Source of the DNA: Eremomyces bilateralis CBS 781.70
Lineage: Eukaryota
Assembly: GCA_010015585.1 (NCBI GenBank)
Contig: ML975177.1
DNA length: 64,000 nucleotides
Direction: 5' to 3' (one strand)
The notes under the pieces were generated by a model. It was not told where the DNA came from. It saw only the letters and a program-made list of their open reading frames with translations, and made no database searches. Made by a program: the position numbers and the translations under genes. Below, in pieces: positions 1 through 18,653 of the stretch. Position 1 is the first letter of the stretch, and each line of letters opens with the position of its first letter.

Positions 1-2158
1 GATCTAGTTCTTCGAAACTGTCGCAGTCAAGAACCAGATCAAAGGGAGACTCTTTCAAAAGGGACAATTGGGCAAATGTACACGATGACTGCAGTAGCAT
101 GCCGGAGTCGTAAGCGGGACACATCAAATGTATACGCTAAGCAGTTGGGGTTATATATGATCTCTAGTGGGACAAAGCGGCGGGTTGTGGATACAGCTGC
201 TGGTCTCGGGCTCACTGATACATACCAAAGTATCAATGAGAATGTTTCGGATATGGCCCTCAAGGCGAAGGCAGGTTGATTTATAACTTAAGTTAGATCT
301 TTTCTTCTAACTTTTCTATTAGAACCGCCTCCCACAGCTGGCCAAAAAGCCAAAGACAGTTCTTGTTTATGATAACTTCAACTTCAAAGATACTGTGCGC
401 GAACAGACAATTGGTTCAACTCATATCATGCGGAATCTGACAACATGCCTGTTGGTTGAGAACCCATATTTGCCTGATGAAGGTTTATCCCAATCAAGTT
501 TCGATCCCACCCAACTTCTCTCCTTCAAAGATATCTGTAAAGCCGATGGTTTAAAGCATGATAAAAAACAGCAGAGTATGGACATTCACTTAGTCTACGA
601 GGCCCTGCAACACGTTCATTCTACAAGCATTGACCTGGTTTTCCAATCACAGCCGTCTACTGTCCCTGCTTACCCAGAGATCAACCGTCTATATGCAGGT
701 GGGAATGCAACAAACATTCATCATCTTCGAGCTGCCCCTTTTGATGAAGGAACAATCCAAGGAACTTACGGAGTTCATGAAGATATTTGGATCCGACAGT
801 TGGGTTTCCAATCCCAGCCACCAAGCGAAGACTTCACAAACCGTCTCTGGTTGGTATTTGGAGATCAGAAAACAGCCCAACATATCCGTACTCTGAAGGA
901 GGCACAGAAGAATGCAATTCTACCTTTTGACAGACGGAGATGGATGTTAGGTCCATCTGGACTATTCCATGTCCTTATGAATCTAATACTAACGATCGTC
1001 CGTATCCATTTTGATACGGAGCCTACACTACCGTCGGATACAAAGCCTTCACTACCAACGGATGCGAAGCCTTCGGTGCCATCAGATGCAACGCTTCTAT
1101 CGGATATCATCTACTGGGATCGAAAAGGATATACTCGAGAATCCCCAAAGTTCTACATGTTTGACCCTCTGCTCAGGCAATCATTTTATGCTCGTGTCTT
1201 AATGCTATGGTACCATGTTCTTACGAGACGAGGACATATCCAAAAGGCATTCCTTGAAGATACCAGTCCAAGTTCAAAACTGGATCTAATTATCCAGAAC
1301 CTAGAGCTAGAAGAACTTATCTCTACAATGAAAGAGGTCTGTACACTGGCATTCTCTCCAGAGGCATGGGACACGACACAATACGGACTTGAATTTCGAA
1401 GTCTCTGCCGGCTTGTCCAGTTGATCAGCATCTTCCTTTCTTTGCGTAAAGCAGTCAAGAATAGCGACATCGGCTGGATTGACCGTTTAATCGATCCACT
1501 TGCAGTTATCTTCCACGCAACTGGACAGCACAAGTATGGTGATGAAATGCTCCATCTTCGTTGGATATTATCTGAATGCGTTTCAGAGAAGATTCTCCGC
1601 GACGCAATACTATCATCTAGTCTTGTGAATTTGCATGGCAAACCAGGCCAGTTTAAGGCTATTGATCTAGCCCTTGAACACGTTAATTGCGCATACAAGA
1701 TTGATATGAAGTTATTAAAGAATTCAACACATAATGCAGACAAAACCTTTGGTAGAGTCGCATTATTAAGTAATGTCTTCTCTAAGATTCGTGGGGCATG
1801 GGAGAACTCATTTGGTTTTACCCAAAGCGATCGACATACAACCAAAGCTGATCAACGGGATATCTTTAGTCGCGCCCTTCAACTATATCTACGCAGTCCT
1901 TTGCTCACTATCCAACCTCGCGAAGCTGTTGGTTGGGACGCACCTGATATCTTCCGGATTGGTGCTGAGGTCTTGGAACAAAAGGTCAATTCCTTCAACA
2001 ATCGGATACCAGTCCGCTCTAGTGTCATCCCCCAGACTGATCCTGAGGACCTTAATGAAGAGACGGATTTGAATCCTCATAACTCTGAGATCTCACCAGT
2101 AATTACCTACTCTGAGGCTTGTGAGGATGGGCTTGTTAAAGATCATGACATTCTTTGA
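1..2158 (+). CDS. Academ-type DDE transposase (DUF6589-like), 5'-truncated by the window edge; GC-AG intron 271-322
   Basis: Frame 1 is open from base 1 to 270. After the intron it reads NRLPQLAKKPKTVLVYDNFNF into ORF 395-2158. Motifs YDN, FGDQKT, GLFHVLMN and IDLALEHVN are typical of this fungal family and give a candidate D-D-E triad. Confidence 0.75.
1013..1090 (+). repeat. 24-bp degenerate tandem repeat (3 copies plus a partial) inside the transposase
   Basis: Encodes DTEPTLPS-DTKPSLPT-DAKPSVPS-DA. Confidence 0.85.
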
Positions 2159-2608
2159 CTGCGTTATCGCTCACTTCATCTATACCCCTCGAAGCCCTCC
2201 ATATCGAAATTGCAGTTTAATGGAAGTTATGAAGCATGAATCATCCTCAAATAAATCGTGATATCTGTCGCCTGTGACCTACGTAACTGTCCCCTCCATA
2301 TACATAACTATTCTAATCCCTCTGTCTCTTAGTAAGGCATATCTTAATCTGTAGGCCTTCCTTTTCTAGAAACGGTCCGGGGGTTGAGGTGTGTCTTAGT
2401 ATAGTATCTCTACCAATCCTTAGTGTTTTTCAAAGATGATAACATTGCTGGAATTCCCTTATTAAGGGCTACAAGATGATGTATATATTATCATAATTCA
2501 ATGGGTTCCTACCCACCCTATTTTCTTTGAAGTTGGTACAAATTTGGAAATAAAAGGATACTATTAGTCTGAAAAGGGCTATCCGAAGTTCTCCCAACCA
2601 AAACACTT

Positions 2609-5428
2609 CTAAATCTTCTTGTTCTCTTTACCACGCTTCTCCCATAGATCCCTCCCTTTGGGCGTCAACTGTACATGAGAACGAAGACCAGCTCGTTTAG
2701 GTGTATTAGGCCTATCTTGTCTGGTGACCTGTCCTTTCTCCTGGTTTCCAGATACTCCCCTAAGCGGCGTCCGACTTCTCTTGTGTATACCTGAAGAATT
2801 GTGAGTAGTTCGTTTGGTCGTTTGGCTGCGCGACCAGATGTTAACAGGTATAGGGGCTCTGATATCGGAGGAGATCGTAGTCTTATTATCTGTACCAGAA
2901 TCTAACTTAACGCTAGATTGTGATACGAACGATGACTCCCCTCTTACGATAAACGAGCTTCCTAATTCCTGCGACCCTTCCGATATCTCCGGCTGTGACG
3001 AAAACGAGGGCCAATGGCGGGGTTTGAACGTTTCCCGATACTCATTAAGCTTCTGAGCAAGTAGCTCGTTATGCATGATAACCCGGAGCCCATCCCTATC
3101 GTCTGCTAATTGACGACTGCGGACATATTGAGCAACCTTTTCCTCTTTAGGTAAACTGGGATTAGGTATAATACTCGAGTCTTGAGGATTACTCTCTAAG
3201 TTTTGAGCAGTACCCTCTGTAGCCTTTCTGGCCAGGGCCTTGATGTTCCTCTTGCACTTTCGTTCCTCTAGTATCGCGTTATGCTTCGAGCATACCTCTA
3301 GAACTATCCGGACAAGGAATGCCAGCAAAGGATCGAGGAGGGTGTTCTGATATTCCCAGTTTTCGATGTCAAAGAGGGCTGACAATGCCTCCTGATCCGG
3401 TATAGGTACCGTTGTTGAGTTCTTCACACAGGTATACATAGAAGCAATAGCCCACTGCGCTTCTTGAGGAATGACCACCCCAGCTGGAACTGGAATCATT
3501 TGCTGCGCTCGTGGGAAGATCGATTCTACCTGTTCAAGGCACCATACAACCAATAGATTCAGCGCAATACCTGCCTTAGTCTCCCTGCCAGGTTTGGTAG
3601 ACTTGAGGGGGATATCAGGCATTGGTAGCAACTGGAACAATGCTATATTACACTCCTTCCCATTGTAACAGACCTTCTTGTCTGCTCGAATGGGGATAGT
3701 ATCTGGCTCGCATTGGTCCTCGTTAAACTCCGCAAGGAATACCTGCCGTCTGCATGGCGCGTTTGCAAGAGAACGGATCGTTATTGGGAGGGTTGCCCTA
3801 TGCTTGAGTTCATCAACAGTCCATGTAGGTAGACTATCTGACTTCCCCCTCTTCTTAGACTTTGGGATAGTTGATTGCGAGTTCTCTTGACTAGCGGCTT
3901 CGGTATTATCAGACTGTTGAGAGCAGTCAGACTCAGCTCCATCGCCTTGCGATAATGGCGATTGTGAATAGGTGGTATTAAGTAACCGGAGTGTATTCCG
4001 CCTGCCCTTTTTCTTCTGAGACAGTGGCTGATTATTACGCGAACTAGGCATTTGAACAGGATCCTGTCCCATTAAGTCGAACGCATAGTATGGCAGGAAT
4101 ATAAAAGCCATCCCATTGATTGCCTGCTTCACCCGAACAGCCCGACCAACCCGTTGCCAAATATCACCAAGATCGTGGCCGATTGGAAGTCCCCATTGAG
4201 CAACCACCATAATATCAGGAATGTCCATACCCATTCCAAGAGCAGTAGTTGCAACAACTACTCTAAGGGAAGAGCATGGGGATCTGATCTTATCGTATAG
4301 CAAGTCCTGGTCGTATCGTGAGGTATTCGATGTATATGCACCAACTGCATCCCGAACCATGGCTGGTTCAAACCCTTGAACAAAGAGATACCGCTCTAAG
4401 GATGCAGAGATATTGGCTACCGATTGAAGTCCATCTACAAAGATGATCGTTTTCGGGATTCGCTGGAGGTCGTCTTCCGTCCTACTAGTTGGATGCTCTA
4501 ATGCATGATCAACTAGAAACCATAGCCGTTGGTAAGCCTTGCTCTTTCCTCTCTCAATGGGCAAAATGTTAAGTGAGATATCAGGTCGATCAATTGAGAC
4601 TCGGATGATCTTAAGTGGCAGTTCATGGTGTGTCTCTTCATAGAAACCACCATAATAGATAACAGCCTGTTCTGTGGCCTTGTTCAAAGTGGCAGAACAA
4701 CCAAACCAGATGGTATCAGCACGTAAGTACCGACGTAATTCCCTGATCTTGAGATATTCCAACCGGAATTCCTTCCATTGCTCCATAACATGGAGCTCGT
4801 CAATTGCAACCACACCAATCTTGTTCTTTACGTCAGGGTTTAACAGCAAATCACGAAACTCATCGCTAGCTGCTTGCTCAGGACCCATTAAGATATGGGT
4901 ATATAACCCAGCTGCAATCTCCTGTAACAGTTTCGGATTCGTATGCTTGGTCTCCGCTGTAATAAGGCAAGGCCTGGCCTCTGGTAACTGTTCAATCGAT
5001 CTCTTCTGCTCCTCCCCAAGCTTGCTTAAAGGAATCAACTGGATGACAATTCTGCCAATAAAGATTGGGATAGCATGGAAGATGATGCTCTTCCCAAAAC
5101 CAGTCTTAGCAGAGACAATAGTATCTCCATAGCGAAAAACAATTCGTCGAAGAGCCCGAACCTGGTTGATACGTGGGAGCCGACCACCCAGGAGTCGCTG
5201 CAAACCATGGAAGATAATATCATGCTGGTATTTGATGTTCTTTCGTATTAGACAGGCCTTTACTAACTCTTGCAGTACCGAGCATAACTCTTTCTCTGGT
5301 GTCGTTGCAATTATGGATATCCGTTCTTCGATCGTTTTCTCGATAGGAGGTGGTTGTACAGAGGCTAAATTTTGGTATAGGGAGGTTTCACGCTGATGGG
5401 CGCGGCCTCGCCGGCGCTTCACTCGCAT
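2609..5428 (-). CDS. RecQ-like superfamily II DNA helicase (transposon-borne)
   Basis: 939-aa intronless ORF with Walker A AKTGFGKS, DELH, SAT, ATTALGMGMD, QRVGRAVR and an RQC-like Cys region (CRRQVF...CYNGKEC). Confidence 0.9.
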   Translation of the reverse strand: MRVKRRRGRAHQRETSLYQNLASVQPPPIEKTIEERISIIATTPEKELCSVLQELVKACLIRKNIKYQHDIIFHGLQRLLGGRLPRINQVRALRRIVFRYGDTIVSAKTGFGKSIIFHAIPIFIGRIVIQLIPLSKLGEEQKRSIEQLPEARPCLITAETKHTNPKLLQEIAAGLYTHILMGPEQAASDEFRDLLLNPDVKNKIGVVAIDELHVMEQWKEFRLEYLKIRELRRYLRADTIWFGCSATLNKATEQAVIYYGGFYEETHHELPLKIIRVSIDRPDISLNILPIERGKSKAYQRLWFLVDHALEHPTSRTEDDLQRIPKTIIFVDGLQSVANISASLERYLFVQGFEPAMVRDAVGAYTSNTSRYDQDLLYDKIRSPCSSLRVVVATTALGMGMDIPDIMVVAQWGLPIGHDLGDIWQRVGRAVRVKQAINGMAFIFLPYYAFDLMGQDPVQMPSSRNNQPLSQKKKGRRNTLRLLNTTYSQSPLSQGDGAESDCSQQSDNTEAASQENSQSTIPKSKKRGKSDSLPTWTVDELKHRATLPITIRSLANAPCRRQVFLAEFNEDQCEPDTIPIRADKKVCYNGKECNIALFQLLPMPDIPLKSTKPGRETKAGIALNLLVVWCLEQVESIFPRAQQMIPVPAGVVIPQEAQWAIASMYTCVKNSTTVPIPDQEALSALFDIENWEYQNTLLDPLLAFLVRIVLEVCSKHNAILEERKCKRNIKALARKATEGTAQNLESNPQDSSIIPNPSLPKEEKVAQYVRSRQLADDRDGLRVIMHNELLAQKLNEYRETFKPRHWPSFSSQPEISEGSQELGSSFIVRGESSFVSQSSVKLDSGTDNKTTISSDIRAPIPVNIWSRSQTTKRTTHNSSGIHKRSRTPLRGVSGNQEKGQVTRQDRPNTPKRAGLRSHVQLTPKGRDLWEKRGKENKKI

Positions 5429-5672
5429 GGAGGCAGATCTGGAGGTTGATCCTCTATACTTGATGACGCGATATGCAGCTTTAAAACTCTAGTTACAGAA
5501 TGAACAGTTAGCAATTTGATATTTAAAAGCCATAGGACTCTTTAACTAACTCTTATCTATATTTCATCAACTTCTGGTGCCCACCCAACTTCTCCGTATG
5601 ATGTTATTCGCCATCTCGACATTTTACCCAAATCTCATCATCTACGCATCCATACACATTTTGCAAGCGTTT

Positions 5673-5790
5673 CTCAGACGGTACCCAAGACAGTTGCACC
5701 CACGTGACTAGTTTGTACGCTAAACATGGGTTTAATCTGGTTACGGTTTAGCTTAACCAGGGTCATGGCTTGGATACCGTCTGAGCCCTA
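5673..5790. repeat. Subterminal inverted repeats and putative transposon terminus
   Basis: ctcagacggtacccaag (5673-5689) matches the reverse complement of cttggataccgtctgag (5769-5785) at 16/17. Shorter inverted pairs lie between the arms: gctaaac/gtttagc and ctggtta/taaccag. Confidence 0.8.
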
Positions 5791-5920
5791 GCTGAGATAA
5801 GTGTTGATGCCACCTTCGCCCACTTCATTCAACACTCAACTGTTTCGACTATTCGAGTGTATTACACCACAGCCAAGTCTTCGCCATTGCAAACTCTCCA
5901 TGTCAGATATTAGAACTCCG

Positions 5921-6318
5921 ATGTCTGTAGAGGGTCTCATTGGTCTTTGGGAAGGTGCTTCCACCCACCCCTTTTCCCCTGCCGTTGGGAAGAACAGTCA
6001 ATTCGCGGTCGGATTTATCCTCCTACTTTCAGGTATGGGAGCTAAATGGAGCTGGCTGATCAAAGGAATTGAGGAAGCTAACTGTTGGATAGCATTCATC
6101 GTCTCTGGCATATTCGCTTTCAGTGTGTAGCTTCCTTGTCCAGTCTCAACTTTTCTAACAGAACGGCAGACCGATCATTAGCTACCGTCCCCGCCCTAGG
6201 AATTCCCGCGTCTTTGGCGTTTGGGTATGTCTCTTCCTACCTGTCTATAAAGGCCTGGCTGACCATCCATAGGTTCGGAGCCGTGTATATGATTTGTGCT
6301 GTGGGAGTTTACGTTTAG
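5921..6318 (+). CDS. OST5: Oligosaccharyltransferase small subunit Ost5/TMEM258-like (4 exons; alternative ATG at 5900)
   Basis: Introns 6033-6092, 6123-6169 and 6225-6272 give MSVEGLIGLWEGASTHPFSPAVGKNSQFAVGFILLLSAFIVSGIFAFNRSLATVPALGIPASLAFGFGAVYMICAVGVYV, a two-TM protein with the conserved GVYV end. Confidence 0.85.
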
Positions 6319-6415
6319 CCTGATACCCCAGAAGAGTTCGCTTCTTTGTACCATAGCAACTACAATTGCAATCGATTCCTCAACCGTTGTCCCAAACCAT
6401 ACAGCATTTGGCATC

Positions 6416-7491
6416 ATGCAACAAGAGGCCGATGACGACGGTGACATTCTCTTCAGCGCCATCTCAAACAATGTTCGGGCGCTATGGCAGCTGCTCCGCT
6501 GCATAAACTTTACCAAAAAGGCGCGTGTTTACATTTCCAATGATGGCATCAGTTTTAGCGTGGAGGAGACAAGTGTCATGGATGGTATGTGCGCCCAGGA
6601 TGGTATCAAACGCCGCAAGCTCTAAGAATCCGTATAGCCTCCGTCCTACTTACGAAGGAGCTCTTCTCAACCTACCGATTCAATCCTCCACCACAAGAAG
6701 AACCTGAAGGCGGTCACGATGAAGCAAACGGATCCAGATCCATGACGGACACCCTCCCTTTCGAAATATCCCTTCCAGCACTTCTCGAAACGCTTCAGCT
6801 GTTCGGCATCACCGAGCTGTCAAGTACACGATCTGGCCGAGACTTCGGCAGCGCTCCCCCTGCTGGTCCCTCTGCCTTTGATCCACGCGCCATCGGAATG
6901 CCATGCATCTGCCGACTCAGCTACACTCACGTCGGCGCACCCTTACAGATCATCCTGACCGAAGGATCCGTCACGACGACATGCGAGCTTACAACCTACG
7001 AGCCGACATCGGAGTCCAGCATACCATTCGACTCGGCGGATGTGGCGCTCAAAGTTCTGGTGCGATCCAGCGTTCTCTATGACGCCGTGAATGAGCTGGC
7101 GGGAACCAGTTCGGAAAAGCTTCTCATCACTGCATCGCCAAGGGCTCCGCGCCTGTCACTTACTGCGCCGGGCGCACTCGGGAGTGCACTGGTCGAATTC
7201 ACCGGGGAAGGAGAAAGCGCCGAAAATCTGCTCGAAACGTTCAATCTGCCGTACGGTGTTCGGATCACGAACGAGTACAAGTTCGACTTGATCCGGAAAG
7301 CGCTCAGAGCCATGGCGATGGCCAATAAAGTAAGTGTCCGGTTTGACGGGCAGGGTGTTTTAAGTCTTCAGTTCCTAGTCGAGGTGGACAATGCCGCAGG
7401 AGGCAAGGTGACCTTCGTGCAATTTCGGTTCGTGCCGTATCTTCGTGAGAATGACAGCGAAGAGGAACGACCAGATTACGGCGAGGATTAG
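6416..7491 (+). CDS. RAD1: 9-1-1 checkpoint clamp subunit Rad1/Rec1/Rad17
   Basis: N-terminal LFSAISNNVRALWQLLRCI...GISFSVE, one intron (~6585-6638), then TTTCELTTYEP and KVSVRFDGQGVLSLQF, typical of the Rad1 PCNA-like family. Confidence 0.9.
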
Positions 7492-7573
7492 ACAGTAGGC
7501 GAATGATAATAATGTAGAGCAGACAGATCGGTGTAGTTGAACATGATCATACAACTATGAAATGTACCCCGAT

Positions 7574-9066
7574 TCATCGCCGTTCCTGTCGGCGCCTATC
7601 TCTGTCGTCGGGATATCTCTCCCTACTACGATGTCTCCTTCTTTTGTCTCTGTGTTGGTCACGACTCCTACTTCGTCTCCTTTCCCCGGGTCGAGGTCCT
7701 CCATCATCATATTTTGATCTTCGATAGTCCGGCTCACGGTTCCTACGTGGACTTATGCTCCGCGACCTGCGTCTCCCACCGTGATGTTCTTCTGGCGCTT
7801 CCGAAGGACGACCATTCCCACCCTTGCCCCGTGCCTTGTCAAACACCATACCGTACTTGTCAACCCTTGTGCTTCCCTCGCGGTCTTCCGTGCGATATTG
7901 CCTCTTCTTCTCCAGGCCTTGAATGCCGCCAAAGCCTGCCGCAGACTGCCGCTTCGTGTTGGTCGCTGTCCGCCACGTGTCGGATAACCGACTGACACTT
8001 TGGGAGAAGTCCACGTGGATGCGATGATCGTCGATCAGGACGTCCTGCATCTTGAAATACGCTTGTTCGCAATCCTTCGCATTCTCGAACTCGATGAATG
8101 CGTACTGGAGGGAGTCGCCAGTCCGTTTATCCCGAATGACTTCGCAGCTCAGGATCTTCCCGAACCGGCTGAAGAGGAGCTCCAGGTCTTCGTCGCGTGT
8201 AACGGGATTTAACTTGCAGACGAAGAGGATGTTCTCCGGGGGTTTGACTTCTGCGAACGGAAGGTCTCCCATCATCTCCAACGTCAACGCTTGTGCCCGC
8301 GCTTCTCTTTCTCGCCGGAGATTCTCAAGGGCTTCTTGGTCCATCTCCACGTCCAGGTCCTCGTCGTCTGCTATTCTGACCGTCGCCATCTGCGCAGGCG
8401 TTGGTAGCGGGCTCTTTTGGGGTAGGAAATCCACAAGGCCAGGAGGATCATTGATCGGATCGTCCAGTATGATGGTATGCCGGATGCGAATATCCTTGAG
8501 CGGTCTTCCCGCGTCGTCAATGAAGGCGCTGTTGATTTTCTCCAGCACATCGAACCCTTCCACGACCGTTCCGAATACGGCTCCCTTCCCATCGAGATAT
8601 TCTAGGTCTTCCCCCAGTGTCACGATGAATTGACTCCCCGCCACCCGGTCCGTATCGTCCTCTTTGCCGATGGGCGCGGTGGCCATACTAACCGTGCCGC
8701 GCTCATGATGTTTCAATGAGGGTTTGAACTCGGGGGCGAAACTCTTGTTCGATGGCCCTTGTAGCAAGCCCCATATCGATGATCCACCATCGGAGTCGGC
8801 ACTAAAAGGGCCCAAAGGATCGCCGGTTTGGAAGGAGAAATTGCGCTGGATGGAGTGAATCGGGGAGTAATTGTAGTATTTGATCTTGCAGAGCTTGAGG
8901 AAGCTGTTCACGCGACACGCGCACACATGGTTAGGAACTATTATATTCAGCCGAACAACACTCAAAGGTGGTAGGATATCACGTACTTTTCGCAGCACCT
9001 GGGCGCTTGATCGACCAAGAGGTCGATTACGATATCACCCAGCGACGTCTCCAAGAGAACCGACAT
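7574..9066 (-). CDS. Cyclophilin-RRM peptidyl-prolyl isomerase (PPIL4/Rct1/Cyp6)
   Basis: [19 protein letters not shown] start, one intron, a cyclophilin domain (FQTGDP, GSQF), an RRM ([16 protein letters not shown]) and an RS/RD-rich tail. Confidence 0.95.
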
Positions 9067-12000
9067 CGTGGTACACTTAAGTGATTTGTGTGGGGAGAAG
9101 GGAGACTTGCAGAAGTCGTTAGTGTGCTGGTATACTCTATACCAGAACTTGAAGGGTCATATCAGCATTCATACAGGACGGAATATTCCCGTAGAGAGCG
9201 CTGACGTTGAGCTGGGGACGGTTCCGATTTAGCGCCTTGATGCCTCAGGCATACTTTCTGTAACGTCAACACCCAATCAGATGACCAGCTTTCTGTTGTT
9301 TTATGTTTACCAACAATGGTCACGTGATAGCAACATCCTTGCTATGTCGCACGTGCCAGTGGTGGCAGTCATCAGTCATCACTGTCTGGACTCTGGACTC
9401 GCCCCCACTCTAGACTAACCACCATCCAAAGCCAAATAGAACTCTCCTATCAGGTTCTCCAACAAACCGGAACTGAACAGAAGCGTCCCGTCCGATTCAG
9501 ACCGGTCACTTGCTGTCGTCAAGGTGCCACAACCTCCACTCCTCTCTCTTTGCGATTCTGCATGTCCAAACGAAGGTCTTACAATAGTTACACTGCATCG
9601 CGCCGCTCCCCCCTGCATCCTCAAATGAGTGCGTCTGCCTGCTGTTCTAAATAAGCCCGATCATACAGAAGTCCTGTCTGTGTCTGCAGCAGTTCGGTTA
9701 AGGATTGACCGAAGTCGCATTGTGCTCCATGTCTAGTCCGACTTGATCAATCGCGTCGAGCCGTCCACCCACCTGTTGTTCTACCCTGAGGCGGTGTCGG
9801 GCCACAGAAAACGTGGTTTATGCTGCGCATCGTGATGTTGCCGATAAGGTTTACGGAAGGCTACTGCTTCGACGGGTTCAACGGTCGCCTTGCAGTATCT
9901 CATCGCTGATCCTCCATAATGTTGCTAAGCGATTGACCAGGCGTCTCCGATTTCCCTCGGGATGATTCGTGTCATCCAAGACCCGGAACGAATCACGCAT
10001 CGATTTGCGCCCTCCACATCTAGGAATTGATCCCGGATGCCGAACGGGATGCAGCATTTCTCCTTCTATCGATACAACCCCTGCTATGCAAGTAGCCAGG
10101 TGGCTAAGATGCCTTGCACCGCCGACCTGTTGCTTTTGGCTGTTATTTCTATCATTTCTATGCAGTCAGGTTCTAGCTAAGATGATTCGGCGAGTGCCTG
10201 TGGGCTTCCGCTGCACCGATTTCCCTTTTTCCCGCTTCGGTTGATACGTTCTTTAATGTCGAACAGTATTCCATGCAGATTGCAGAAAAAGATACATCAC
10301 CACTACGACACATGTTGGTGGCTTGGAAATGCGGACCGCTCCGCAACCAACCGCTGTCATTTAGTTAGCCGAGTTCGCGTTTCGCTCCATGCTGCTGTGC
10401 TCGATTCTTTTCTGATCTTTTCTGTGTTTCCTTGATTTCAACCTTTGAATTTGTCCTCCTTGGATGTGAAGAGCATGAATGGATGGATGGATTTACTGGT
10501 TCTAGAATCCATAATGCAGTTCGCTGGTCGTTAGCGTGACTTGCTCTTTGCATCAAGGTGTCACTTTTGGATCCTGGCGGCCCTGGTTGCTCCCTCTCTA
10601 GCCGACAATTCGACCAAGACTCATCTGAGATCATCTCATGCGCCATTGGCTTGGGGTAGCTGCATCGCTCCCTCGTGCGAATCATTCATCAGGTGTGACG
10701 GCAAGATTTCCTGTCCACGCAGTGGTCTAGGAGGTCGAAAAGATCAGTTTCCAATTTGCCGGGCCAATTTGTTTGCTAGACCCCTGTCCCTGTAAGTCAC
10801 CAGGGTGCCTTGCTCGACCGCTCACTGTGCCCACGGAGTAGTGAGTACGTCCAACCCCTGGGAGAGCACAGCCGTTGAAACAGCGGATGGCTGCTTGCGT
10901 TGCCCACGGCAAATCATTAACGCAACGCAAACGTCTTCATTCGTAGCAGGTCAAACTTAGTCCAGGGGAAATGACATGGCAACACTGGAGACACCCTCAC
11001 CTGGCAAGCTAGGAAACCTGCTATCCCAGGTGCACTCAGTACAGTATTCAACACAAAAGATTGAGTCTGGGAACAATACTTGCATTTCGCCACACCCCAC
11101 TTTCCCTTGTGCCAGCGTCATCGCACGAACGTCACAGGACTCTGCTTCGCTCAATAGGGAGGTTCAGTCCTTGACAGGCTGACGTGGTACTAGGGTTCTG
11201 CGATCTGCGCGAGCGCACATTGGGAGTGGGTGCCGTAGCCACGATCCGCCCTGTCGAACTCCGAACCTGTGATCACAAACTTCGACGGATATTGGCTTAC
11301 GATCTGTACTCCTTTACTATAGGATGGATGTATCAAGCGTCCGGTTGACGTCTGGCCCTGGAGTCACGTCTCGTCCTTACTATCCATGGACGCACCAATA
11401 ACGCTTGTATCCTCTTGAGGTGTATAAAGCAGTGTTTGCTCTGATTAAACAGTGTCTACGTCCAGTGAGGCTACTTCTGTGGCTTCACGATTGGCCATCG
11501 AGGTCCCTGATTGGGCAATGTCTAAGCGTTTGCCCTCAACGAAACCAATACAGCGACTGCGTCCCTGCATACTACTCATGATTTCCAACAAACGGTACGA
11601 CGACAATTTTGATCCCCCACAATCAACATCACTAGGTCACACACGAACCGAGAGCTCCAATGTGTCTAATTCTCCTGCACTGTCCCAGATCCTCAGATGC
11701 TTGTGGGGACCTCGTTACCTATCCGCATTGCATGTGTCTCATTTGTTTGTCCTTCACTTGCCTTTGCAGTGTCCCACATTCGACGAGCATTGGAGGGCGA
11801 TGTGTCGAGACCACTAGAGTGAGAGCAAGAAAGTGGGCGAACATTTGACCATTCCTGGACTATTTGCAATACGTTGACTGGCTTTTTATTCCACGATGAG
11901 TAAACGGTGAGAGCATGGTCAAGCTGTGTTTCACGAGCTAGAAATTTCCTTTGCAATCAACGGCTGTTGTGTCCCTCTAGAGGCATATCAATGAACCGTA

Positions 12001-12525: not shown

Positions 12526-14447
12526 ATGACACCTGCACTACACCTCCAAGAGCATTTTGACCATGTCGGGGGTCGTTATTCTAATATGAACGTTCAGCAT
12601 TATTATGCGGATCGACACGGTCCTTTACCCATAGCAAATGGTCACTACCACCGTCCTGACCCCCGATCTTATCCAGCGTCACAGCATCATCGGCCAGTCC
12701 GGATGCATCGTGACATGGAGGAAGTCAATCAGGCACCGCCGAGGAAAAGAATTGCCCTTGCTGTAAGTTTCCTTCAGTTCAGCCCCTCCGTCTGCAGCCC
12801 AAGTATGAGAGCTGCCGCATCTATGTTGAGAAGGAAAGGTATGAGTGAGTGGGCTAACAGTGATTACAGTGCGCACGATGCAGAAAACGAAAAATTAAAT
12901 GCAGTGGCGACCCTGGTAATGGCTCGGGGTGTCATAATTGCAGGCAAGCTGGCGTTGAATCTCATGTTTGCCAGTTCAACAGAGTCAGTGCACTTCCCTT
13001 CCCATCGAGTTCTTTGTGCTGACAGCCCTAGGTTGGGACAATGGTTGGGACAATGGATTACTCGACCTTGATTGATACGCAACACTGCCCAAGTCCCGTA
13101 AATGGATACTCGACTAGTCCGACATCTGCGGACGGGTCTGAGACTGCGATGTCTTCCCGATCACTGCCAGGCTCCTCTTATTCCGTCCCGAGACCTGGAT
13201 CAAATTACCCTCCTTGGATAGCGGCGACCTACCCCGATACCTCAAGCGCAGAGACTTACAGTTTGATGCCGCCCTACTCATCTTACGGCTCGACCAACGA
13301 AGCGGTCCAGTGGACTGGCGGCCAGTACCCTGTTCGTTCATACAGCGCCCGAAGCCTCGTTGACCCCGATCCATCTGCTACCTACCCGGGCCTTCCTCTT
13401 ACCACAGTAGTAAATGTCAACGCTGCAGCTCGGATTTCCAACATGGACAACACAGCTCTTGACTCGGCTTCTGAAATTTCAGGACAAGAGTCAACGAATT
13501 TTGTTATGAATTCCCTTCAGTCGACCTTGCCGATCTCGTCTACTCGCCAACTTCCGATTCCTACTGGCCCTTCCCCAAATGCGTCTACCGTAGGCATCGG
13601 GCCCATACGCAACAGCAATATTATTGGAGCGCACTCTGTAGGAGAAACAATGGACAGTACGGCTCATTACACGCGACAAGCAATGTGCTGGCAATCTCAA
13701 AATGCAACGGATACCAGTCTCCATGGGACGAATACTGAACCATCTATGTCTGGCTCCGAGTATCGAAATGGATCCATCAACAACGTCTGCACGACCGCAG
13801 CCAGCGCGCCAGGCATTGAAAATCTCACGTCCTCTGGTTTCGCTGCAGAGAGGCATGTTTTCGGAAAGCCCTCCTCACCAGACGAACTCCGCGGTCATAA
13901 ATCTCACAGCACAATCGGCCCGCTGGGCTACATCACTAGCTCCTTTGCCAACCAATCCAACTCGACTGATGCCGGCACAACCCTAGCAAAACTCGAATCA
14001 GGGACCCCTCGCCAGTCTGTTAGCAGTGCGTACATTCCAGGAGATACCTCTGCAACGCTTCCAAATGCGGCGAACACCCTCCCACGGCCAGTCCGTCCAA
14101 CACCAACTGAGTCTGAATCATCGTCGGCCATCCTTCGTCGAGCTGACTCGTCTTGCAATCTTTACTCGTTTTCGACCGACGCTACCAAACGGCCCTCCAC
14201 ATCTTCATCAATGTCTCAGCTGGAGATGAGTGGTGGAGGCGGCCTTACAAGTTCCGCCGAGAACAGTCTCTCCGGATCGTCAACTCTCGTCAGCGGTCAT
14301 ACTTATGCTCCAGTGTACCAAGCACATACACCGCACAATGTACAAGCTTCGCATTCGGAATCACTGGGAGCTGATAGCTCCGTCGGCGGATATGAACGTG
14401 GTGTGGCAGTAGGTGGTGATCGAGGTGAATCCAGCAGAGGCTTTTAA
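12526..14447 (+). CDS. Zn(II)2Cys6 transcription factor with a long Ser/Thr/Pro-rich C-terminus
   Basis: Introns 12763-12869 and 12984-13031 join RKRIALA-CARCRKRKIKCSGDPGNGSGCHNCRQAGVESHVC-QFNR in frame to ORF 13041-14447. Confidence 0.9.
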
Positions 14448-16464: not shown

Positions 16465-17309
16465 CCATTCAATCCCTATAGGCCGGACTGGGAGGAATTC
16501 GAATTGTATTCGGAGCGACTGACGACACAGGGGAACCCATATACTATGGTGCTGAAGCAGAATCTTCGTGAACTGAACACACTACCGCGCGGTCTTGAAC
16601 CACATGTTGGAGAGCATTTATAACTATAAATGCACAGTACATACTTTTGTGTTATTCCGCGGCCATCCCATTTATGTTCAAAAGCCGGAGAGTGAGATTC
16701 CACTGGATGACAAATGTCCTTGCCCTGGTGAGCATCAAGGGTTTGTGTAAGTGCAACGTCATGTTCAATCCAGCCCATTTTACGTTTGCTAGTGAACCTG
16801 GAAAGCAGCAAGGTATGCTCGGCAGACGACTGCGATGATTTCCAACAGCAGGAGGCAATGGATGCTCCAGAAATGGGCTCAATATCAAAAAAAGTAGGTG
16901 CAAAAATAATCCGAAGTACTGTCCGTTCAGTGTCCGCTAACCTTCGGTACTCTAGTTACCTGGAAGAACGGGAGGATCGCAGACAAATGAGGATCAACCT
17001 CCACCGTGACGAGCTCGAAGCGTCAAGAGCCTTTACCACTAGAACGCAGGACCGATATCCCGGAGACGGGCGCAATAAGAGAAAAGGGTGCGGCGGAATA
17101 AGGAACTATATTATGCCGGGACGTATATCTCGACCTGGGTGGTAACAGGTATTTAAAAAGCCCAGTGCCTCTCGATTTGTGCAATTCTGGGTACCAATAT
17201 TCATGAGAGTCGTCGTGGATAACAAGTCCTTGCTCTTCACACTGTAAGATTCCAATTGCCATTTACAGTACGAAGCATTCGGTTTAGAACAGAATTTTAA
17301 CAATATGTT

Positions 17310-18653
17310 TCATATAAACTCCAAGAAACACGCAAACTTTCGGCTGTTCAGCTGCGGAGGATCATGCAATAACTCAATTGCCTTGACCTTAACAGGAGTC
17401 GAATTTCGCCCCCATGTGATTAGGCTTGTAAAAGTCCCGCCATTCCTCAGATCGATAGTAAGCTGCTCATGCTGCCTCCTCGACGACCCCATGAAATTGA
17501 CCACCACATCCTCCCCTTTCAAATTTTCGGAGGCCGATTCGATGGTATAGGATATGCCTCCCCAGCTCTTCGGTTCGCGCTTGGTTCGTAGCACTAAGCA
17601 CTGGCTCCAGGCCGGGATCATGTCTTGTACTGCAATGACAAATTCCTCCCAAACGGTTTTTAGGTTGCCGTGCCAGAGCCGGTTGGGGGTTGATACCGCT
17701 TCCGTGTTTTGGCAGTTGCTTTTCTTTGCTTCGTCGGCCCAGTCGACCTGATAGTCCATCAGTCGTCGTGTAAGCCACTGCCTCTGGCCAGCTTCCAGGG
17801 TTGCCCAAGCATTGGAGACGCATTCTCGTATAATGTCCGTGGAATCGATCTGTGCAATGACTTCCGTAGCTCCCCTTGATTTCAATCGTCGACGTGCTGG
17901 AGCATTCCTTGGCACCCCCTTTATAGACTGTTCCATGACCAAGGAGATGACGTTGATAAATATCCTGCTGCTGCACCCTATCCCAGAGAAGGAAACAGCC
18001 AGTGAAGTGGCCGGCGAGTCAATAGCTCCGTCGTGCTGAACACTCTGGTCGTCAAGCATCGTGGAAGGGGCCGAGGTCATGTTTAAGTACGTGGCAAGGC
18101 CGATAAGTAATGACTGTGCTCCCGGTTCAAATTTCAACGATGCGGAAGTCAGTACCAGTCCGTACGCGGAGTCATCGGCGGTCGCAGCAGCTGTTTCTGT
18201 TGGCGCTGGAGTGGTTTGCTTCGGGAATCGTCTGATAGACGAGAAGATAGTTTGATTGATGGACTGAGGAGATTTGTCTTTAGAGTTCGCCGCATGAAAG
18301 AGCCGATCCCTGGCATATCGTCCGAACTCAGCGACAAGCACCTGGTGTAAGGATCGACTGAGCGGGATACCTTCGACTCTATTGGCTTTTGGTAGAACGT
18401 TACACTTTCTAGTCTGGAGCTTGGGGGGCAATGTTGGGGGATCGTTTGTGCCTGGTTCTGTGGAGTTTGCCTTGGTCACGATTACATCGCCCAAAGTCCC
18501 ACTCTCTTCCCCAAGGTAGCTATACTCCCTTAGACGGCTGAGCCCAATTTTTCGCCGGACTCGATTCCGATTACAAGGCATGTTTAGAGAATAAAGCGAG
18601 GGCAATGTGCCCAAGCCCGAACCAAGGCTATAGAAAGATGGTAATGTTTGCAA
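17310..18653 (-). CDS. Hypothetical protein (orphan, ~420-447 aa)
   Basis: Long open frame with a globular-looking C-terminal half and no recognised domain. The start is uncertain. Confidence 0.45.
   Translation of the reverse strand: MQTLPSFYSLGSGLGTLPSLYSLNMPCNRNRVRRKIGLSRLREYSYLGEESGTLGDVIVTKANSTEPGTNDPPTLPPKLQTRKCNVLPKANRVEGIPLSRSLHQVLVAEFGRYARDRLFHAANSKDKSPQSINQTIFSSIRRFPKQTTPAPTETAAATADDSAYGLVLTSASLKFEPGAQSLLIGLATYLNMTSAPSTMLDDQSVQHDGAIDSPATSLAVSFSGIGCSSRIFINVISLVMEQSIKGVPRNAPARRRLKSRGATEVIAQIDSTDIIRECVSNAWATLEAGQRQWLTRRLMDYQVDWADEAKKSNCQNTEAVSTPNRLWHGNLKTVWEEFVIAVQDMIPAWSQCLVLRTKREPKSWGGISYTIESASENLKGEDVVVNFMGSSRRQHEQLTIDLRNGGTFTSLITWGRNSTPVKVKAIELLHDPPQLNSRKFACFLEFI

Follow-up and report, generated by a model that had tools for sequence, protein, structure and literature searches.

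Helitrons are eukaryotic transposons with a helicase of their own, a Pif1-type superfamily 1 (SF1) enzyme fused to an HUH nuclease, and they have neither terminal inverted repeats (TIRs) nor a target-site duplication (TSD). P elements and hAT elements, which make an 8-bp TSD, carry no helicase. Passages of PMC9587614 describe KolobokH as a RecQ-encoding lineage of Kolobok DNA transposons known from fungi alone, with the transposase domain followed downstream by the helicase, and give Kolobok elements a TTAA-specific 4-bp TSD and RR..YY termini. AcademH elements encode an Academ-type DDE (aspartate, aspartate, glutamate) transposase and a superfamily 2 (SF2) helicase. They are recorded, in the relevant passages of PMC10799480, from fungi including Ascomycota at low copy number, and the statement of the AcademH author excerpted from PMC10045372 gives a TSD of 9 or 10 bp for AcademH and of 3 or 4 bp for AcademX. 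Here we describe an element at the left edge of a 64,000-nucleotide stretch (the window) of contig ML975177.1 of the fungus Eremomyces bilateralis CBS 781.70 (assembly GCA_010015585.1), which carries a DUF6589 transposase gene and a RecQ helicase gene.

Window positions 1-5800 are, in our judgement, probably the right-hand ~87% of one copy of a ~6.7-kb TIR DNA transposon that encodes an Academ DDE transposase and a RecQ helicase. The element is called AcademH-like because it combines an Academ-type DDE transposase with a RecQ-family helicase, and it shares with AcademH the two-gene content of such a transposase and an SF2 helicase. In contrast to the 9 or 10 bp of AcademH, three of four complete relatives of the window element have an 8-bp TSD. 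Its DDE enzyme, TIRs, TSD and separate RecQ-type SF2 helicase set the element apart from Helitrons. As AcademH is already in print from Ascomycota in the passages of PMC10799480 noted above, the class is known and the present data refine it rather than add a new one. The 8-bp TSD, the conserved termini TTATCTCA(N)TCAGAC, the subterminal foldback and the link between DUF6589 and Academ may be new relative to AcademH as described in the papers that cite it. The literature mention of DUF6589 carries no functional statement, and the supplements of PMC10799480 contain none of the terms "PF20231", "DUF6589" or "Academ". Tying this large family of unknown function to a transposase superfamily would correct many fungal annotations that now read "hypothetical protein" or "RecQ helicase", and exact ends, a TSD length and a subterminal foldback are given for a clade of helicase-carrying DNA transposons.

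Gene content and copies of the element

The product of the + strand gene at positions 1-2158 matched DUF6589 (PF20231, E 2.5e-62). Its frame is open already at base 1, which corresponds to residue 181 of P0134, a paralog of 872 aa, and the gene crosses the left edge of the window, leaving ~180 codons and the left end of the element outside. The window agrees with P0134 at 86/90 residues (181-270) and at 572/602 residues thereafter (transposase overall 95% identical), and the last exon is identical over 611/611 residues to the database gene model P0001. The 52-nt intron is skipped by a contig of the RNA run X3 (joint 268->321, which can shift by +2), and P0001 makes the matching join, from ...MALKAK to NRLPQL. 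In an alignment of 31 DUF6589 proteins (A1), the D of YDN was kept in all 25 sequences that cover the column, the other six being gapped there, and both the D of GDQ and the E of LEH were kept in 31/31. D710 and E714 of P0134, in the DLALE block, were also invariant. At window positions ~1031-1090 the transposase has 24 extra bases (8 residues) relative to another copy, within a tandem peptide repeat of the type TLPSD/SLPTD/SVPSD; a contig of another copy omits 24 nt at 1055, and the comparison with P0134 contains 9 gap columns.

The second gene is an uninterrupted 939-aa open reading frame (ORF) on the - strand with DEAD and Helicase_C domains (Pfam). Every one of its 37 PDB sequence matches belonged to the RecQ family, among them WRN (1.8e-14), E. 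coli RecQ (4.7e-12), RecQ4, RecQ5, RecQ1 and BLM, and the third aligned stretch (residues 554-591) covered the RecQ zinc motif (CRRQ...). In an alignment of the helicases of 22 relatives, K113, D210, E211, H213, C559, C587 and C593 were invariant, as was motif VI. Pfam detected neither an RQC nor an HRDC domain in the protein. Judged from its sequence, with an SF2 core, a DExH box and the RecQ zinc motif, the window helicase belongs to the RecQ family. In P0075, the helicase gene model of the 1.30-Mb scaffold, the last 17 residues differ from those of the window (at ~2690) and resemble a frame-shifted reading of the same DNA, as would result from a 1-nt indel or a gene-model artefact near the stop codon. 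Other copies replace ~226 nt of the spacer between the two genes (joints 2178->2405/2406 with 8-9 different letters, in the DNA runs).

The initial annotation, made from the letters of the window, had proposed an intronless 939-aa RecQ-like helicase and YDN/GDQ/LEH as the catalytic residues of the transposase; the ORF, Pfam and PDB results bear out the first, and conservation of all three residues across the 31 proteins of A1 agrees with the second. Its picture of the gene pair held for the convergent arrangement of a long transposase frame and an uninterrupted helicase, but the transposase starts in mid-frame at base 1 and contains a 52-nt intron.

Gene models in 90%-identity clusters place copies with at least 90% protein identity at no fewer than six loci on five scaffolds of E. 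bilateralis CBS 781.70: the 248,240-bp scaffold of the window and those of 1,301,577, 309,810, 1,515,116 (two loci) and 396,544 bp. The window helicase agrees with that of the 1.30-Mb scaffold at 914/916 residues and with the remaining copies at 90-93% identity. From two DNA runs of a single sample (X1 and X2), Logan contigs were aligned to the window at a likeness of at least 85%; run X4 gave 0 contigs aligned to this stretch. Contig depth was 1296-10719 in bins of positions 1-5700 against 222 in the flank from 6001 in run X1, and 580-3868 against 164 in X2, a fall of ~6-48-fold at the element border that, being summed over contigs, shows a repeat and is not a copy count. Of the 831 X1 contigs aligned, 399 were at least 99% identical, 207 fell at 95-99%, 177 at 90-95% and 48 below 90%, and the differences between copies were mostly transitions in both directions (383 transitions against 138 transversions in X1). 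No second copy was found in the window's remaining 58 kb.

Some contigs join position 3526 to 4776 with two other letters between them. The depth of this joint was 1350 in X1 and 1057 in X2 against the flank values of 222 and 164, ~6 times single-copy, and the joint is also present in X3. An identical deletion junction occurs in gene models P0138 and P0140, which lie on two different scaffolds. Because the joint stands at ~6 times the flank depth and is found on two scaffolds, the non-autonomous derivative has itself multiplied.

Run X3 is labelled "RNA?" and was taken as RNA by its spliced joints, because four GT..AG joints lie in the neighbouring Rad1 gene. It contains element contigs across both genes, including the spliced transposase intron; such contigs give neither the strand nor the level of the transcripts. 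Three joints with + strand GT..AG-type ends were also seen in X3 inside the - strand helicase gene (2845-2918, 4530-4584 and 5211-5275), the third with a TACTAAC box at 5261-5267. These suggest spliced antisense transcripts or read-through from the transposase side.

The G+C content of the element is 45%, whereas the remainder of the window has 51%. The TpA/ApT ratio (0.79) and (CpA+TpG)/(ApC+GpT) ratio (1.24) of the element are similar to those of the flank, and by the usual index thresholds the window copy shows no signature of repeat-induced point mutation (RIP). A word-index search with the A1 profile added nothing new except P0141, a 315-aa gene model on a 701,702-bp E. bilateralis scaffold that matches the family profile at E 1.2e-57 and shares only a short 74%-identical stretch with the window transposase; it represents either an old fragment or a further, more diverged family within this genome.

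By these sequence comparisons the E. bilateralis family is young and probably active. Youth and escape from RIP had both been proposed in the initial annotation, and the 914/916 identity between scaffolds and the composition of the window copy speak for them. The further copies and non-autonomous derivatives that it had suggested looking for were both found, and the single-copy gene pair that it had set against a transposon gave way to a multi-copy element on five scaffolds. Being young, transcribed and accompanied by an amplified deletion derivative, the family lends itself in practice to the question of what a cut-and-paste element needs a helicase of its own for.

Termini, target-site duplications and foldback

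Contigs of other copies match the window up to 5799-5801 and then diverge. A unique single-copy contig starts at 5741/5744, and three other-copy contigs continue from 5801 with mutually unlike sequences (agreement 0.54). The last bases of the element, ...CTGAGATAA (5792-5800), are the reverse complement of the terminal motif TTATCTCA, and the terminus read inward from 5800 back to 5779 is the sole such site in the window; no second terminus was found in the remaining 58 kb. The end of the element was placed at 5800 because the terminal motif lies there and the other-copy contigs break at 5799-5801. Several details of the initial annotation shift accordingly: the end is 5800 and not 5790, the proposed TIR start TAGGGCTCAGACGG lies ten bases inside the true end, and the letters gctgagata(a), read there as the duplicated target, are the terminal motif of the element and therefore not a TSD. 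Full E. bilateralis copies are predicted from the motif to start with TTATCTCAG... at the left.

Metagenome contigs were scanned with alignment A1, giving 67 loci with relatives of the transposase; a scan of viral contigs gave no relatives. At 16 loci at least 3 kb of sequence lay beyond the transposase, and in 11 of these a helicase followed downstream on the opposite strand, tail-to-tail as in the window. Four shorter loci also contained the helicase. In this family the terminal motif is TTATCTCA(N4-9)TCAGAC, seen at 18 left ends, at five right ends (inverted, past the helicase) and at one degenerate right end (L046). The bases outside the motif are unrelated between loci, and L024, L025 and L034, which belong to one family, have three different left flanks.

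Both ends were present in four metagenome loci, L034, L063, L046 and L002; the right end of L012 should fall ~150 nt past the end of the locus. L034 (8610 bp) is bordered on both sides by the exact 8-bp duplication CATAAGGT and L063 (19,348 bp) by CTTCCAAG. The flanks of L046 (8268 bp) are CTACGGGG and CTATAGGG (CTAYRGGG), equal at 6/8 positions with both differences being transitions, and its right end contains four transitions. Because 8-bp duplications border three of the four complete relatives, the TSD of the clade is taken as 8 bp, in place of the 9-10 bp expected in the initial annotation. The 8 bp that follow the element in the window are predicted on this basis to be the right copy of its TSD.

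The L034, L046 and L063 elements have no ORF of at least 120 aa between transposase and helicase. In L046 the end and the TSD show transition-type decay. All three copies are old and probably degraded by RIP. Arrays of short repeats (for example GAACTTCCGCGAACT or AACTCCTGTAAACTCCTG), inverted between the two ends, were seen in the subterminal regions of several families, and they may be further transposase-binding sites.

A second feature of the termini is an inverted pair of boxes. The segment ~13-28 nt from the terminus consists of TCAGAC plus family-specific bases, and an inverted copy of it lies 70-210 nt further in. Beside the TCAGAC core the bases vary from family to family, but the two boxes of one end agree in them. 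Over 23 ends, the longest exact inverted match beat 95% of 200 shuffles in 12 and was unreached by any shuffle in nine, and the median exact match was 8 nt for inverted as against 6 nt for direct matches. When the ends were folded as single-stranded DNA, positions 10-30 paired with a more internal segment in most of the 23 (z -5.9 to +0.2). Special cases were the left ends of L039 and L063, where the partner lies only 31-53 nt in, and the right end of L046, which has no clean distal range. Such boxes would fit a structure whose formation is required, and equally a pair of inverted sites bound by one protein.

In the mechanism that we propose, the transposase would bind the terminal TCAGAC box and excise the element, and insertion would occur across an 8-bp staggered target cut, as in hAT and P, to which it is closest in structure. 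The helicase would be an accessory factor, and its most likely role, at about even odds, is to open the ends with their conserved foldback (the terminal box and its inverted copy 70-210 nt inside). Alternatively, it could act in repair or copying of the donor gap, which would explain a gain in copies. Opening of the foldback, if true, would give the helicase of AcademH-type elements its first concrete function open to test, and the E. bilateralis family would supply a live, expressed example. Taken further, DUF6589 transposons with TTATCTCA...TCAGAC ends would form a distinct helicase-carrying clade of Academ, with an 8-bp TSD and with each end opened into a foldback by the element's own RecQ helicase; as a whole this extension is doubtful.

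Superfamily assignment and competing explanations

The Academ RNase H profile built by Muszewska et al. 2017, RNase_H_Academ.hmm in the supplement of PMC5751038, was compared with the DUF6589 family by eye through its consensus letters, over five of the ~19 parts of the file and without a score. The blocks around the first D, the second D and the E correspond (Table 1). The distance from second D to E is 263 nodes in the profile and 263 residues in P0134, and from first to second D 188 nodes and 164 residues. In the control profiles the first block reads v v i a D g t (KDZ) and v v s l D g s w (Kolobok), and neither fits YDNFNFK. On this motif match the transposase is likely a member of the Academ superfamily, and the placement in Academ that the initial annotation had made is favoured, by eye, over Kolobok and KDZ by the catalytic blocks and the D-to-E spacing.

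An AlphaFold model of P0134 (predicted local distance difference test score 78.5, predicted template modelling score 0.76) placed the first D on strand 1, the second D right after strand 4, next a helical insertion of ~230 residues, and the E on a helix. When the model was compared with 48,161 chains by VIA-align, the best matches were Hermes (hAT; Z 10.5, 295 residues aligned) and the P element transposase (Z 9.5, 358 aligned), followed by Tn5 (Z 8.9), retroviral integrase cores (~Z 8) and RAG1 (364-374 residues, Z ~6), and all of the top 25 rows were DDE transposases or integrases. The modelled fold is thus DDE RNase H-like and closest to the hAT and P transposases. Searched by sequence with the transposase profile, the PDB yielded nothing beyond chance matches (E >= 0.19).

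With the A1 profile, 4113 clusters of a representative library were matched at E <= 0.001, a number that falls to 2267 at 1e-10 and to 562 at 1e-30. Among DUF6589 look-alikes in the Atlas, those from Basidiomycota were the most frequent, and structural look-alikes came from Mucoromycota, Cnidaria and Mollusca; the Atlas gave no named look-alike of the family outside DUF6589. Thirteen ORFs between or beside the genes of relatives matched no Pfam families, and one LINE (long interspersed nuclear element) insertion was seen.

Several observations weigh against an AcademH-like transposon. The window lacks the left ~0.9 kb of the copy, including its left end, and the TSD of the relatives is 8 bp where 9-10 bp is in print for AcademH. 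The three relatives that have a TSD are distant (26-35% transposase identity), whereas L002 (7662 bp), the closest complete relative (42%), has none, and five of the 16 assessable loci are without a helicase. The Academ match is one of consensus letters, judged by eye in five of ~19 profile parts. Foldseek against the PDB alone gave no match at E <= 0.001 (Hermes rows at probability 0.28-0.85), and an XPG fusion or neighbour, which would tie the family to AcademX, was not found, 12 long relatives carrying DUF6589 only. The depth, as a sum over contigs, speaks for repetition and not for number. The part given to the helicase is pure inference, and the covarying inverted boxes could be merely two binding sites for one protein.

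Some of these points would be accommodated if the elements were a separate, unnamed DDE superfamily like hAT and P, or a deep sister of Academ, that gained RecQ independently, so that "AcademH" would be the wrong label. The closest solved folds are those of Hermes and the P element transposase. The TSD is 8 bp, a length that a passage of PMC12730594 gives for hAT, and not 9-10, and DUF6589 is the sole Pfam family matched. However, the window transposase has neither the Pfam families of hAT and P nor, in Pfam, the C-terminal hAT dimerisation domain, and the DN after the first strand, GDQ, DxALE and the equal D-to-E distance match the Academ profile. The taxa of the DUF6589 look-alikes (Basidiomycota, Mucoromycota, Cnidaria and Mollusca) also fit the range "animals and fungi" given for AcademH. 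We therefore consider a separate superfamily improbable and retain the AcademH-like assignment.

KDZ elements are abundant in Basidiomycota, the group in which DUF6589 look-alikes are commonest, and a transposon of the Zisupton/KDZ type with an added helicase would also account for an 8-bp TSD, the length given for Zisupton in a passage of PMC12730594. Against this, the first block of KDZ has no DN (read by eye in one of ~13 profile parts), and no Pfam KDZ match was obtained in 31 family members at E up to 5, which leaves this origin very improbable. The chance that the element is a KolobokH is slighter still. Like KolobokH as described in the passages of PMC9587614, it is a fungal DNA transposon with a RecQ helicase. 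Yet the TSDs here are of 8 bp without TTAA (CATAAGGT, CTTCCAAG and CTAYRGGG), the termini are TTATCTCA...TGAGATAA instead of RR..YY, the helicase lies on the opposite strand and not downstream on the same one, and the Kolobok first block differs from VYDNFNFK.

A duplicated host gene pair, that is, a domesticated transposase beside a cellular RecQ paralog, has next to no probability: both ORFs are intact and transcribed, and helicase domains of this kind are, in passages of PMC10799480, often reported as fusions between host genes and transposable elements in fungi, but the six or more loci on five scaffolds (90% to 99.8% identical), the sharp step in depth, the unlike flanks past 5800, the amplified deletion derivative and relatives with conserved termini and TSDs at different sites show that the window element is a transposon.

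Feature coordinates and neighbouring sequence

Table 1. Features of the element in the window, subterminal arrays of relatives and blocks compared with the Academ profile. Positions are those of the window unless a locus or profile nodes are named.
Feature	Position	Strand	Basis or content
Transposase, internal exon part	1..270	+	open frame from base 1; P0134 residues 181-270
Transposase intron, 52 nt, GC..AG in window copy	271..322	+	RNA-contig joint; P0001 model
Transposase last exon and stop codon, DUF6589 domain	323..2158	+	PF20231; identity to P0001
Candidate catalytic residues	D 371-373, D 863-865, E 1676-1678	+	alignment conservation; fold position
Spacer between convergent genes (3' ends face), 450 nt	2159..2608	.	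gene boundaries
RecQ-family SF2 helicase, 939 aa, no intron needed	2609..5428	-	ORF; Pfam; PDB sequence matches
Helicase Cys-rich RecQ-type zinc motif	3650-3760	-	C559/C587/C593
Helicase motif VI	4133-4156	-	motif invariant among relatives
Helicase DELH	4790-4807	-	motif invariant among relatives
Helicase Walker A	5087-5110	-	motif invariant among relatives
Segment absent from internally deleted derivative, 1249 bp	3527..4775	.	contig joint 3526->4776
Right subterminal region, upstream of helicase gene	5429..5800	.	includes foldback boxes
Foldback pair	inner box CTCAGACGGTA 5673-5683; inverted copy TACCGTCTGAG 5775-5785	.	inverted match; single-strand fold z -3.0
Right terminus TTATCTCAGCTAGGGCTCAGAC (inward)	5779..5800	-	motif match; contig breakpoints 5799-5801
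Predicted right TSD copy GTGTTGAT, 8 bp	5801..5808	.	inferred from L034, L063, L046; prediction only
Subterminal repeat arrays of relatives	L007:170-330, 7860-8180; L012:238-258, 12800-13040; L034:9457-9532, 17260-17930		
First-D block (D, N near-invariant)	profile nodes 2-8		Academ f D N w D i k vs family Y D N F N F K
Second-D block	profile nodes 186-192		Academ v v l t g d q vs family W L V F G D Q
E block (D450, E454 near-invariant)	profile nodes 444-454		Academ w a y v h l D e a l E vs family F K A I D L A L E

Two metagenome loci depart from the usual gene order. In L032 the two genes share one strand (126-1124 and 3163-4926, both +), with the helicase upstream and the transposase downstream. 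In L044 a 1139-aa LINE-type ORF with endonuclease and reverse transcriptase (1580-4996, - strand; RVT_1 4.3e-32) lies directly downstream of the DUF6589 gene, at the place expected for the helicase, and looks like a nested insertion.

Beyond 5800 the window continues with Rad1 (PF02144, E 5.2e-55), a spliced gene, and then a cyclophilin-RRM gene, so that the housekeeping gene which the initial annotation had noted beside the element can be named as Rad1. This checkpoint-clamp gene lies within 5801-7491 and has introns at ~6031-6091, 6123-6170, 6224-6272 and 6584-6637. The element ends ~100 bp upstream of it, and the helicase promoter and the Rad1 promoter stand back to back.

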